The translations under genes and the position numbers were made by a program. A DNA stretch of 20,000 nucleotides. It comes from an uncultured virus (IMG/VR IMGVR_UViG_3300037427_003924) (taxonomy: Duplodnaviria > Heunggongvirae > Uroviricota > Caudoviricetes). Under the pieces are notes generated by a model. That model saw only the letters and a program-made list of their open reading frames with translations. It did no database searches and was not told the DNA's origin. Below are positions 1,779-14,212 of this stretch, in pieces (position 1 is the first letter of the stretch; every line of letters begins with the position of its first letter). The stretch lies in IMG/VR virus record IMGVR_UViG_3300037427_003924; one strand, given 5' to 3'.

Positions 1779-2141
1779 ATGTCAAAAGAGACTAAAGAAA
1801 AAATAAGTTTTGCAGATTTGGATACTTTTCTTAAAATAGCTCCCGTGATAGGCTTAGCTCTCCTGACATATCTTCAGACTCTATTCCCTAGTAAAGCTGA
1901 ATTTGATAAACTGGAACAGCACTTAATTAAGATGGATAAGAAGATTACGGAGATGACCGTTCTCCAGCAAGCTATTAGCAGCAACACTACAGACCTTCGG
2001 AGAGTCGCCGAAAGGATTCGGCTCCTAGAACTGGAGGTAGCAAAACACAACGCTCAAAGCTCTGCTAAAGTGGGAAAAAACAATTCCCGCACTGTCGCGG
2101 CTAAAAAAAATACCAACGCCTCGGGGGGGAGTAGGAACTAA
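1779..2141 (+). CDS. Membrane-anchored coiled-coil protein
   Basis: One hydrophobic segment (FLKIAPVIGLALLTYLQTLF), then a coiled coil; GTGTAA at 1763-1768. Confidence 0.8.
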   Translation: MSKETKEKISFADLDTFLKIAPVIGLALLTYLQTLFPSKAEFDKLEQHLIKMDKKITEMTVLQQAISSNTTDLRRVAERIRLLELEVAKHNAQSSAKVGKNNSRTVAAKKNTNASGGSRN

Positions 2142-2452
2142 TGAAGTGGATTCTCCCTTTCTTATTTACTTTAGGTTTAAACGCCGAACCAAACTTTGAT
2201 CCAGACGTAGAAGTCAAAATAAAAGGTCTAGTATGCGCCAGTTGCGCTATAGGGGTAAAAAAAGGTTTAGATAAAACTAAACTAGTTAAAAAAGTTAAAT
2301 TTGATACCAGTAAACAATTATGTATAATAGAATACATAAGCATAGAGATCCATCCTAGCCAAATTAATCAAATTGTTAAAGACGCAGGATATCAAGTAAC
2401 CTCTATTAAATGGCTTAAAGATAAAAAGCCAAATAGATATAATAAACCATGA
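2141..2452 (+). CDS. Exported heavy-metal-associated (HMA, MerP/CopZ-like) domain protein
   Basis: Signal peptide plus IKGLVCASCAIGVKKGL (GxxCxxC) and C-terminal IVKDAGY typical of HMA domains. Confidence 0.85.
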   Translation: MKWILPFLFTLGLNAEPNFDPDVEVKIKGLVCASCAIGVKKGLDKTKLVKKVKFDTSKQLCIIEYISIEIHPSQINQIVKDAGYQVTSIKWLKDKKPNRYNKP

Positions 2453-11146: not shown

Positions 11147-11164
11147 ACCGTGCCAACCCCTATC

Positions 11165-11192
11165 ACTCACGCTGAAAAGCGTGAGTTTTTTT
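11165..11192 (+). terminator. Intrinsic terminator
   Basis: actcacgct-GAAA-agcgtgagt followed by a T-run. Confidence 0.85.
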
Positions 11193-11207
11193 ACGCCTCT
11201 TTAAAGT

Positions 11208-11288
11208 CGTAAGTCGTTGGGCTGCAAGGACTTAGGGCCGGGGCGGAGGGTCCCAGCGACGTAAGTCGTTGACTATCAGTGGTTTACG
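11208..11288. repeat. 81-bp paired-palindrome element, copy 3
   Basis: cgtaagtcgttgggctgcaaggacttagg + 23 bp + cgtaagtcgttgactatcagtggtttacg. Confidence 0.93.
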
Positions 11289-12625: not shown

Positions 12626-12871
12626 TCAGCAACGGTCTGGCAATGCAACCTTTTTCTTTTCCGTCTCCAGATTCTCAAACTTCTTGTCCATGCCTTCGTC
12701 ATCCCAGTCGAAAGAAAAGTATTCATCAAATACCTTGGAGGCTATCCGTCCCTCTACGCTTTGAGTCGCTGCTTCTTTCAGCATAAACTTCATAGCTTTG
12801 AGTCTTTTCCGCATTTCTTCAGTACCCGCTTTTGTTCGCGGCCTCAACCAATGATCATCCATTTGTTTCAT
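12626..12871 (-). CDS. Hypothetical protein
   Basis: 81 aa; ATGA overlap with the upstream gene. Confidence 0.8.
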   Translation of the reverse strand: MKQMDDHWLRPRTKAGTEEMRKRLKAMKFMLKEAATQSVEGRIASKVFDEYFSFDWDDEGMDKKFENLETEKKKVALPDRC

Positions 12872-13509
12872 ACTTCTAATTTCGCTTCCCTTAACTGCTT
12901 ATGAGTATACCGTAGTCCGGCATTCCATGCAAGCCTTTTCTTCTTCGGTTCGGGAATATAAAAAATATTAAAGTGAGGCCCGATGGCAGTTTTATCCCGA
13001 AGGATTACCCTGCTAGACTTGTAGATAGGCTTCTTGCTTATATCCTCTACAAAAGTCTTATACTTATAAGGATTGTAATATGCACCTTTAAATTCTTCTC
13101 CCGACTCTGGAATGCAATTCTCGCACCAAGAATACTCTCCTTCGTTACGGCAGTTGCAGCCCCAAACCTTTTTCAAGTTACCATCTTCCCCTTTCTCAAA
13201 ACGATAGGCTTGGTGGTCTCCTTCGTTTACCCATGTGCCAATAACATAAGCGTGAACGTTTTTGCGCTTCTCACGGACAACACGTTGACGACCATTCTCG
13301 TTAACGTGAAACTTGGCATTCTTTAGCTCGACTCGGTGACTATGGCAATATAATCTCCCCGTGCTAGTATCAACTACAGAAAGGCAATCCTTCTGAAGAT
13401 TGTAGTAAACTTTCACCCGATCAGGTGCAACAGGGCAACCCATGTAAGTCTTGCGGGTTTCTGCATCGGCCCAGCTAATGAATCCTTTTGGTTCTTCTCT
13501 TTCCCTCAT
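12868..13509 (-). CDS. Conserved phage protein of unknown function (VYxNL / REKRKNVHA / YNPYK family)
   Basis: Motifs recalled from many phage hypothetical proteins; TTGACT(13543-48)-17-TATACT(13520-25)-10 nt-ATGAGGGAA. Confidence 0.85.
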   Translation of the reverse strand: MREREEPKGFISWADAETRKTYMGCPVAPDRVKVYYNLQKDCLSVVDTSTGRLYCHSHRVELKNAKFHVNENGRQRVVREKRKNVHAYVIGTWVNEGDHQAYRFEKGEDGNLKKVWGCNCRNEGEYSWCENCIPESGEEFKGAYYNPYKYKTFVEDISKKPIYKSSRVILRDKTAIGPHFNIFYIPEPKKKRLAWNAGLRYTHKQLREAKLEV

Positions 13510-13571
13510 AACTTCAAATAGTATAAGTTAAATTGTTTCTAGAGTCAACTATAAAAATAACTTTTTTAAAT

Positions 13572-13645
13572 TGGACGCGAGGGAGGGAATCGAACCCTCA
13601 ATTGTTCTTTTGCAGAGAACCGTCTTGCCGTTTGACCACCCCGCG
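13572..13645 (-). tRNA. tRNA-Cys (GCA)
   Basis: Acceptor CGCGGGG/CCTCGCG, anticodon arm GTTCT-CTGCAAA-AGAAC, T arm GAGGG-TTCGATT-CCCTC, discriminator U73, encoded CCA; 74 nt. Confidence 0.96.
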
Positions 13646-13738
13646 ATTGTAAGACCCCTTTCCCTTCTTGGGACGATGCACCCGCTCACCAGTGTTCCAA
13701 CTGACTACTGCTCGGGGCTTTTTAGGTTTCTCACTCAC
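13598..13738 (-). CDS. ArfA-like (alternative ribosome rescue factor A-like) micro-protein overlapping tRNA-Cys
   Basis: MSEKPKKPRAVVSWNTGERVHRPKKGKGSYNRGVVKRQDGSLQKNN; GTG start 8 nt after TTGACA(13769-74)-16-TATTAT(13747-52); not in the ORF track. Confidence 0.65.
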   Translation of the reverse strand: MSEKPKKPRAVVSWNTGERVHRPKKGKGSYNRGVVKRQDGSLQKNN

Positions 13739-13837
13739 AGGTGTTAATAATATCACACTTTACACATATGTCAACAGTAAAAATGTTTTTTTTAGGGGTT
13801 GACAAGTAGACCCTTTTATCCTATACTCATCCCAGTT

Positions 13838-14092
13838 ATGAAACTTAAAGAAATCAAAAACGGATCAATCTACTACAATACCAAGAAGAACCGTGCAGAG
13901 CGGGTAATCTCTAATACTTTTAGCAGTTCGCGAGTTGTGACAGAATTCCACGGTAAGAATCAAAGCGCGGTTGCTACTCGAAACATTCGACTCGCTAACA
14001 GCGTAGAAGTGGAAAAATACCTAGATAGAACAAGGAAAGGTAATCTAATGACTTTTTTCGGAAGACTCTTCTCTCCGAAGAAACTCGCTTGA
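13838..14092 (+). CDS. Early hypothetical protein (near-leaderless)
   Basis: TTGACA(13799-804)-17-TATACT(13822-27)-10 nt-ATG; start revised to 13838. Confidence 0.85.
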   Translation: MKLKEIKNGSIYYNTKKNRAERVISNTFSSSRVVTEFHGKNQSAVATRNIRLANSVEVEKYLDRTRKGNLMTFFGRLFSPKKLA

Positions 14093-14212
14093 AAGTCTTA
14101 GTCATGAGCTTTTAAGCGCCCTACCTTGGGGGTTTGCATTGGTTTTTTTAGCTTTTCCCAATGTTTTACTAAGGTAGGGGGGAATCTCCTGAGTGCTAGT
14201 TTTATTCTAGCC

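Follow-up and report, generated by a model that had tools for sequence, protein, structure and literature searches.

The locus described here raises a simple question. When a small open reading frame (ORF) that resembles the ribosome rescue factor ArfA runs in frame into a tRNA gene and meets its only stop codon there, which protein does the phage make: the complete one, which requires ribosomes to read into the tRNA, or a truncated one, encoded by whatever RNase P leaves behind when it cuts the tRNA free? We examined this question in a 20,000-nt stretch of DNA (hereafter, the window) from an IMG/VR record of a marine virus (28,888 nt, approximately 18% complete), together with relatives of the locus from metagenomes and other viral sequences. 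The gene content of the record is of the phage type and includes genes for an endolysin, a clamp-loader-like AAA ATPase, GP88, an L5-gp82-like protein and a DUF932 protein. The window also encodes an unusual phage cargo, a 103-aa ORF with a heavy-metal-associated (HMA) domain (2141-2452, plus strand; E 5.7e-8).

Layout of the locus and its promoters

The ArfA-like ORF is preceded by a sigma-70-type promoter (13747..13774, minus strand), which consists of the -35 hexamer TTGACA (13774-13769), a 16-nt spacer and an extended -10 element, TG-n-TATTAT (hexamer 13752-13747). In a promoter scan, this site matched 11 of the 12 consensus positions, with TG present before the -10 element. The scan detected three promoter-like sites in the region 13300-14200, as opposed to 1.1 +/- 1.1 in shuffled sequences. 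The -35 hexamer is kept as TTGAC(A/T) in 11 of 12 representative relatives, the exception being locus L064, and the -10 hexamer of these relatives comes in two variants, TATTAT/TACTAT and GAGAAT.

The ORF itself (13598..13738, minus strand) is 141 nt long, with 46 codons plus a stop and a 46-aa product; it starts with GTG (13738-13736) and ends with TGA (13600-13598). The ORF listing gives a 52-aa version that starts at an upstream GTG in the same frame (13756), which falls within the promoter. The GTG at 13738 is located only 8 nt past the -10 hexamer, so the mRNA is likely to be leaderless or near-leaderless. The family core, represented by the invariant alignment columns NTGxRVHRPKKGxGSYxR, comprises residues 15-32 (13643..13696, minus strand).

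The gene for tRNA-Cys(GCA), predicted by ARAGORN and Rfam, occupies the 74 nt at 13572..13645 on the same strand. The ORF runs for 31 codons up to AAT (13648-13646), and its next codon, CGC (13645-13643), is made of tRNA bases 1-3. The dual-use stretch (13598..13645, minus strand) consists of tRNA bases 1-48, which also form codons 32-46 (RGVVKRQDGSLQKNN) and the stop; the TGA, the sole stop of the ORF, represents tRNA bases 46-48. As judged from tRNA geometry, RNase P would be expected to cleave between U(-1) at 13646 and C(+1) at 13645 (13645..13646, minus strand), exactly at a codon boundary. A previous sequence-only reading of this DNA had described a strong promoter in front of a near-leaderless 46-codon ORF, a codon boundary at the first tRNA base and an only stop codon inside the tRNA; our analysis bears out this description in full.

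Between the ORF and the tRNA, neither a promoter-like site nor a terminator-like site on the coding strand was found. Likewise, no terminator was detected on the coding (minus) strand within the ORF, as both terminator-like matches of the scan fall on the plus strand. A further promoter (TTGACT, 17-nt spacer, TATACT; 13520..13548, minus strand) would serve the downstream L5-gp82-like gene (12868-13509, minus strand; ATG at 13509; Pfam PF25735, E 1.9e-29), which is syntenic in 47 related loci. No terminator was found between the tRNA-Cys gene and this promoter.

On the other side of the locus, a divergent promoter (13799-13827, plus strand) precedes an ORF that starts with ATG at 13838 and ends at 14092 (plus strand) and for which no family match was found. 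Individual promoters of the form TTGAC(A/T)-17-TATA(A/C)T are found in front of genes throughout this phage group (the window, L003, L004, L006 and L007). The start codons of these genes are located 7-10 nt past the -10 hexamer, often in the context GTTATGA, so many messages of the group are expected to have little or no leader.

The ORF is a gene under purifying selection

A metagenome scan matched 181 stretches, of which 126 encode relatives of the window protein and 80 were kept. Fused forms account for 51 of these loci (L014-L064, including the window's own record); adding the window gives 52 sequences, which reduce to 43 unique ones. All 43 have GTG as the start codon. Variable sites in codons 2-31 are distributed over the three codon positions as 10/5/24, and this pattern moves with the frame in two control frames. 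With pairs restricted to dS > 0.2 (505 of 903), the medians are 0.043 for dN, 0.67 for dS and 0.064 for dN/dS. The ArfA-like ORF is a real gene under strong purifying selection and, because all the sequences compared are fused forms, its protein has been kept under selection since the fusion.

The leader was also considered as a structured RNA. A single-sequence fold pairs it with the acceptor stem of the tRNA (z-score -1.36). This pairing is absent from the consensus fold of 17 relatives and was rejected.

Likeness of the protein to ArfA

The Pfam ArfA profile (PF03889) aligned to residues 18-32 of the window protein with a score of 21.7 bits (E 1.4e-4), below the gathering cut-off of 25.5, and it matched all 11 aligned family members (best E 1.3e-5). 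In a profile-profile comparison, hhalign aligned the family to nine bacterial ArfA sequences with 97.2% probability (E 3.1e-11) over 25 columns (17-41), which cover the C-terminal half. The proposed kinship with ArfA is upheld by the latter comparison but falls short of the Pfam cut-off; we do not assign the window protein to the Pfam ArfA family and, on these profile matches, regard it as ArfA-like in its C-terminal half. Three homolog clusters are named ArfA by JGI, and one homolog cluster, P0011, has PF03889 among its precomputed domains.

When the family profile was searched against PDB, the six best matches were all chains of E. coli ArfA. In the alignment to the full-length chain, ERVHRPKKGKGSYxR corresponds to QRVEKNKKGKGSYMR, residues 27-41 of E. 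coli ArfA; the stretch of E. coli ArfA that had been quoted in the sequence-only reading is present in this alignment. The family core aligns to Q27-R41, that is, to the RF2-recruiting strand and the tail that sits in the mRNA channel. The segment aligned to K33-R41 is invariant as PKKGxGSYxR in the alignment of 11 family members (A1) and as PKKGKGSYxR in a second alignment of 15 sequences that combines phage and bacterial ArfA (A2). The string RPKKGKGSYNR is identical in the bacterial ArfA of Shewanella, Neisseria and Pelagibacteraceae. The ERVH of the family would correspond to QRVE of E. coli ArfA, the RF2-recruiting strand Q27-E30. All A1 members have W or F four residues before the Arg of this strand; the upstream aromatic residue of E. 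coli ArfA is F25.

The N-terminal region is less easily matched. The N-terminal helix of ArfA is described as holding Ala18, a residue needed to activate RF2 (PMC8012679). This helix (residues 15-24) is outside the columns aligned by hhalign. MAFFT sets the family's PRAVV under KALV, and the Ala of PRAVV is not invariant in A1. The family members are only 37-46 residues long. A complex prediction of E. coli RF2 with A1, run without controls, scored 0.00 and has no bearing either way.

Against cultured phages, megablast of the locus gave no match, and neither did tblastn with the 46-aa and 37-aa peptides; the BLAST low-complexity filter may hide the motif in such searches. With a SAR11 ArfA as the query, 13 phage records were matched. 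In Caulobacter phage Cr30, an ArfA-like tblastn match (11148-11258) lies mostly between two annotated coding sequences, and no ArfA-like gene is annotated there.

The window protein most probably works as ArfA does, on ribosomes that have stalled at the 3' end of a broken mRNA during infection.

The tRNA-Cys

The tRNA-Cys(GCA) is the only tRNA that ARAGORN found in the window, and its score against the Rfam tRNA model (RF00005) is 59.9 bits, compared with a gathering score of 29. In the predicted tRNA, C1 pairs with G72, the discriminator base is U73 and the CCA is encoded, the gene ending in ...CTCGCG-T-CCA. U73 is an identity element of tRNA-Cys. Among 17 relatives, compensatory changes were observed at alignment pairs 126-140 (UA to CG, 8 sequences), 148-160 (GC to CG, 8 sequences) and 125-141 (3 sequences), affecting the anticodon stem and the T stem. 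Double changes were seen in 6 of the 37 predicted pairs, with 4 of these located in tRNA stems or involving their flanking pairs. In a 144-kb relative that is 90% complete, tRNA-Cys is the sole tRNA found. By these comparative marks, the tRNA-Cys is functional.

Codon 31 is either AAT (22) or GAT (21) in all 43 unique fused sequences, so the base at position -1 of the tRNA is always T. We considered whether the C1-G72 pair had been selected to encode Arg and rejected this idea. The unlinked tRNA-Cys of a stand-alone relative, L078, shares the acceptor stem. C1-G72 is thus an original feature of this lineage of tRNAs, and the Arg codon did not arise to serve coding. Past this codon, the tRNA-encoded tail of the protein varies non-conservatively among relatives (Gly to Glu, Arg to Trp or Pro, Gly to Asp), and the variants track changes in the tRNA, for example, G5 to A5, which turns Gly into Glu. 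As this variation is non-conservative, the tail shows tRNA constraint and not protein constraint.

In two of the fused relatives, a gene for tRNA-Lys(TTT) is found 3 nt past tRNA-Cys (L053:1108-1259 and L059:505-656), which places the ORF at the head of a two-tRNA transcript.

Distribution and origin of the fusion

The ORF runs into tRNA-Cys in 51 of the 80 kept metagenome loci, one of which is the window's own record, and in two of six IMG/VR loci. In all 51 fused metagenome loci, the tRNA starts 3 nt past the Tyr codon. The remaining 29 metagenome loci have their own stop codon 6-17 codons past Tyr or Phe and no adjacent tRNA in the sequence available, as do the other four IMG/VR loci. In one of these stand-alone loci, L078, a tRNA-Cys gene is located 1,373 nt downstream. 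A wider scan of viral contigs for KKGKGSY matched at least 588 stretches; among the matches listed, 84 were confirmed and 80 were kept. None of these 80 further phage ArfA-like loci, again among the matches listed, has an ORF that ends in a tRNA, all of them having their own stops.

The ORF-tRNA fusion is clade-specific. The expectation that homologs would keep both the fusion and the frame was borne out for the window's clade, with the same junction in 51 of 80 metagenome and two of six IMG/VR loci, but not for the family as a whole, where 29 of 80 metagenome relatives stand alone and stop before, or are unlinked from, any tRNA. In the stand-alone relative L082, a gp82-like gene is located directly downstream of the ArfA-like gene. 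Because of this arrangement, the ancestor was probably an ArfA-like gene with its own stop, followed by gp82. The tail of the ORF was probably later replaced by tRNA-Cys, and a microhomology deletion could account for the exact position of the junction.

Several other arrangements were seen around stand-alone genes. In L071 and L082, the gene is followed by a conserved GC-rich hairpin (CCCTC..CTGCG...CGTGGCGGGGG), with a T run in L082, which is probably a terminator. In L067, L073 and L078, members of a subgroup ending in ...KRTKYK, long AT-rich arrays with a recurring GCGAAATA-like word are found past the gene. An unrelated viral contig (L182:83-443) encodes a different ArfA-like gene between tRNA-Gln and tRNA-Lys; this gene has its own stop codon 8 nt before tRNA-Lys. 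Finally, in seven viral loci (L184, L187, L190, L192, L193, L186 and L151), the ArfA motif (KPKKGKGSYNRK) is located near the N-terminus of much longer proteins, with tails of 108-215 codons that end in a conserved GKGGAPGQWS.RKAQM...AYKKAGGGY region.

Which product is active

The stand-alone relatives allow the residues past Tyr to be compared. This set consists of 88 unique loci, 86 from phage or metagenome contigs and two from bacterial metagenome-assembled genomes (MAGs). Arg is found two residues past Tyr in all 11 sequences of A1, all 15 of A2 and all 88 unique stand-alone loci, in which the tail past Tyr ranges from 5 to 215 residues. In the window protein, this family-invariant Arg is encoded by tRNA bases 1-3 (CGC). 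A message cut by RNase P would encode a 31-aa peptide that ends in ...GSYN, one residue past Tyr, and lacks the invariant Arg. In the PDB alignment, this peptide corresponds to E. coli ArfA(1-40). ArfA cut to 40 residues is reported to have lost rescue activity (review PMC8012679, citing Chadani 2011a), and E. coli ArfA without the last 17-18 of its 72 residues is reported in the same review to retain it (PMC8012679).

A further indication comes from L064, which carries a decayed tRNA, mispaired in three stems. The Rfam tRNA model finds no match there at E <= 0.01, whereas it scores the tRNAs of L053, L078 and L182 at 58-78 bits in the same search. Despite this decay, the L064 ORF reads on for 41 codons and all of its invariant residues are intact. 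Because of the invariance of Arg, the tails of at least 5 residues, the reported inactivity of ArfA(1-40) and the intact ORF of L064, the 46-aa read-through product appears more likely to be the active form. Of the points raised in the sequence-only reading, its caveat that activity may reside in the full-length form has the better support.

That reading also suggested that RNase P could here replace RNase III, or that translation and tRNA maturation may compete. In the first of these models, RNase P would stand in for the RNase III site or terminator of bacterial arfA genes, the 31-aa peptide would be the active product, destroyed by tmRNA tagging unless trans-translation is saturated, and the locus would act as a tmRNA-sensing switch. 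ArfA and BrfA are indeed described as being made from stop-less mRNAs in bacteria (PMC8012679), and the predicted cut falls exactly at a codon boundary, next to a T at position -1 in 43 of 43 unique sequences. Moreover, when terminators are called simply as a hairpin plus a T run, 7 of the 88 unique stand-alone loci, all from phages (L118, L119, L130, L131, L132, L148 and L161), contain an intrinsic terminator that lies within the ORF or overlaps its stop, so stop-less designs do occur among phage copies. However, the end of the terminator hairpin in L130 is 30 nt past the Tyr codon, which still leaves about 10 codons of tail, and the 31-aa product would end one residue past Tyr, as opposed to the minimum of five in relatives, lack the Arg conserved in 88 of 88 and correspond to the reportedly inactive ArfA(1-40) (PMC8012679). 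The ordinary stops of 29 of 80 metagenome relatives and, among the matches listed, of all 80 other phage ArfA-like loci also argue against such a switch, as does the combination of an intact ORF and a decayed tRNA in L064. No terminator inside the ORF was found in the 28 unique stand-alone loci of the window's own subfamily (L004-L095). We consider a working, tmRNA-gated 31-aa product unlikely. The wider proposal that this marine clade has rebuilt the control of ArfA, with RNase P making the message stop-less and output gated either by trans-translation or by a race between the ribosome and RNase P, is in our opinion similarly doubtful.

Bacterial arfA genes are built like the seven terminator-bearing phage genes.

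Proposed mechanism and the remaining alternatives

The reading that we favour, with modest confidence, is that of a small ArfA-like phage gene whose 3' end has been replaced by a functional tRNA-Cys, such that synthesis of the read-through 46-aa protein and maturation of the tRNA are mutually exclusive. What the data show is the geometry of the locus, selection acting on the ORF as well as on the tRNA, and the ArfA homology of the protein's C-terminal half. The other steps are inferred, along the following lines: transcription of ORF and tRNA as one unit, initiation without a leader, translation into the tRNA, cleavage by RNase P, competition between these last two and rescue activity.

One strong promoter would transcribe the ORF together with the tRNA, yielding a leaderless or near-leaderless message with a GUG start. 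The protein would retain the half of ArfA that enters the empty mRNA channel of a stalled ribosome, as well as the RF2-recruiting strand. Only ribosomes that translate 15 codons of the uncut tRNA could produce its complete, 46-aa form; in the tRNA, bases 1-3 would supply the invariant Arg, later bases further basic residues and bases 46-48 the stop. A ribosome reaching the junction ahead of RNase P would unwind the acceptor stem and the D arm, read the 15 codons and terminate at the UGA in the variable-loop/T-stem region, after which the tRNA could still fold and be processed. If RNase P were to cut first, the tRNA would be freed and a stop-less message of 31 codons would be left, with an incomplete, probably inactive product that would be tagged by tmRNA. 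Because the 46-aa protein needs uncut tRNA sequence, protein synthesis and tRNA maturation would exclude each other on any one transcript. RNase P usually acts quickly, and read-through may therefore be infrequent; in E. coli, a leaderless start at a 5'-GUG is inefficient.

Contigs from RNA libraries (four runs), a type of data in which RNA ends and strand are not resolvable, bear on the co-transcription step. The ORF-tRNA junction is spanned by contigs from two studies (X2 record 2 and X3 record 4), which fits an uncut precursor but may also reflect carry-over of DNA. A contig from X1 reaches just 25 nt past the junction into the ORF, and X7 yielded no contig at the locus. In X2, an 81-nt contig covers the tRNA alone at a depth of 11.9, compared with 2.2; it has a relative's sequence, with 6 differences, and is compatible with mature tRNA. 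Two contigs extend beyond the predicted transcription start on its upstream side and may therefore stem from DNA carry-over or from upstream read-through.

A quite unlikely alternative, in our estimate, is that the peptide is no rescue factor at all: its ArfA-type tail would fill empty mRNA channels and block or divert host rescue by tmRNA-SmpB or ArfA, or would mark ribosomes, and the link to the tRNA would be an accident of genome compaction. Such a role would suit an ArfA alignment limited to the ribosome-binding half, an N-terminal region unlike that of bacterial ArfA and an apparent ancestor that, as in L082, was an ArfA-like gene with its own stop directly upstream of gp82. However, the RF2-recruiting strand (ERVH aligned to QRVE) and the upstream aromatic residue are conserved, ArfA forms of about 40 residues with similar N-termini are encoded in Pelagibacteraceae genomes, and nothing in the data points to inhibition specifically. 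It is extremely improbable that the ORF yields no protein and is a leader conserved solely for expression or processing of the tRNA: although it sits wholly in the tRNA leader and is not called as a gene in some records, the dN/dS of 0.064 with variation mostly at third codon positions, the invariant GTG start, the stand-alone homologs with their own promoters and stop codons and a leader that has no convincing conserved RNA structure (z-score -1.36) all contradict this.

Significance of the locus

The gene arrangement is real and unusual; a literature search found no paper on a rescue-factor gene overlapping a tRNA. Phage-borne ArfA genes have so far only been annotated and never studied. With its sigma-70-type promoter, an ORF of 141 nt and a tRNA gene, the locus could be moved into E. 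coli and would represent a compact test system there. Read as proposed above, with a read-through protein and a tRNA competing for one precursor, it bears on the competition between the ribosome and RNase P for a single transcript, on whether one set of bases can double as tRNA and coding sequence in a bacterial-type system and, with family members of only 37-46 residues, on the minimal ArfA. It also suggests that phages may bring along a defence of their own against stalled ribosomes, in some cases located next to tRNA genes as a kit for translation repair.

Comparison with known systems

Small, basic and built around the RVxxxKKGKGSYxR core, the window protein resembles ArfA of E. coli and other proteobacteria (YhdL, PF03889). 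In contrast to ArfA, its N-terminal helix region is unaligned and its Pfam score is below the cut-off; the phage ORF also lacks the RNase III hairpin or terminator and ends inside a tRNA gene. The would-be cut of the phage ORF lies one residue past Tyr, whereas the active truncated E. coli ArfA is described as lacking only the last 17-18 of 72 residues (PMC8012679).

According to GenBank product names, annotated phage ArfA genes occur in cultured phages of Alphaproteobacteria. Those of Pelagibacter phage HTVC027P (gp30), Citromicrobium phage RXM (g10) and Brevundimonas phage Kikimora are, like the fused ORF, small and contain the ArfA motif. Unlike the fused ORF, the annotated genes of cultured phages have their own stops and a different N-terminal subtype, and their identity is annotation-based. 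No tRNA was found within 800 nt of the ArfA-like gene in four cultured-phage regions examined. In the literature on such phages, ArfA is presumed to support translation during infection (PMC12753301, PMC8953757).

BrfA of Bacillus subtilis and ArfT of Francisella are small, release-factor-dependent factors, and BrfA, too, is described as being made from a stop-less mRNA (PMC8012679). However, neither is related in sequence to the phage protein, and both are reported to have evolved independently of ArfA (PMC8012679).

A parallel to the layout itself comes from organelles. Under the tRNA punctuation of mitochondrial transcripts, excision of a tRNA sets the 3' end of the upstream mRNA, possibly without a complete stop codon. 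Excision of tRNA-Cys would likewise define the end of the upstream message in the phage locus. In mitochondria, the stop codon is completed by polyadenylation, whereas the stop of the phage ORF is inside the tRNA, and cleavage would leave a bacterial-type message that is truly stop-less.
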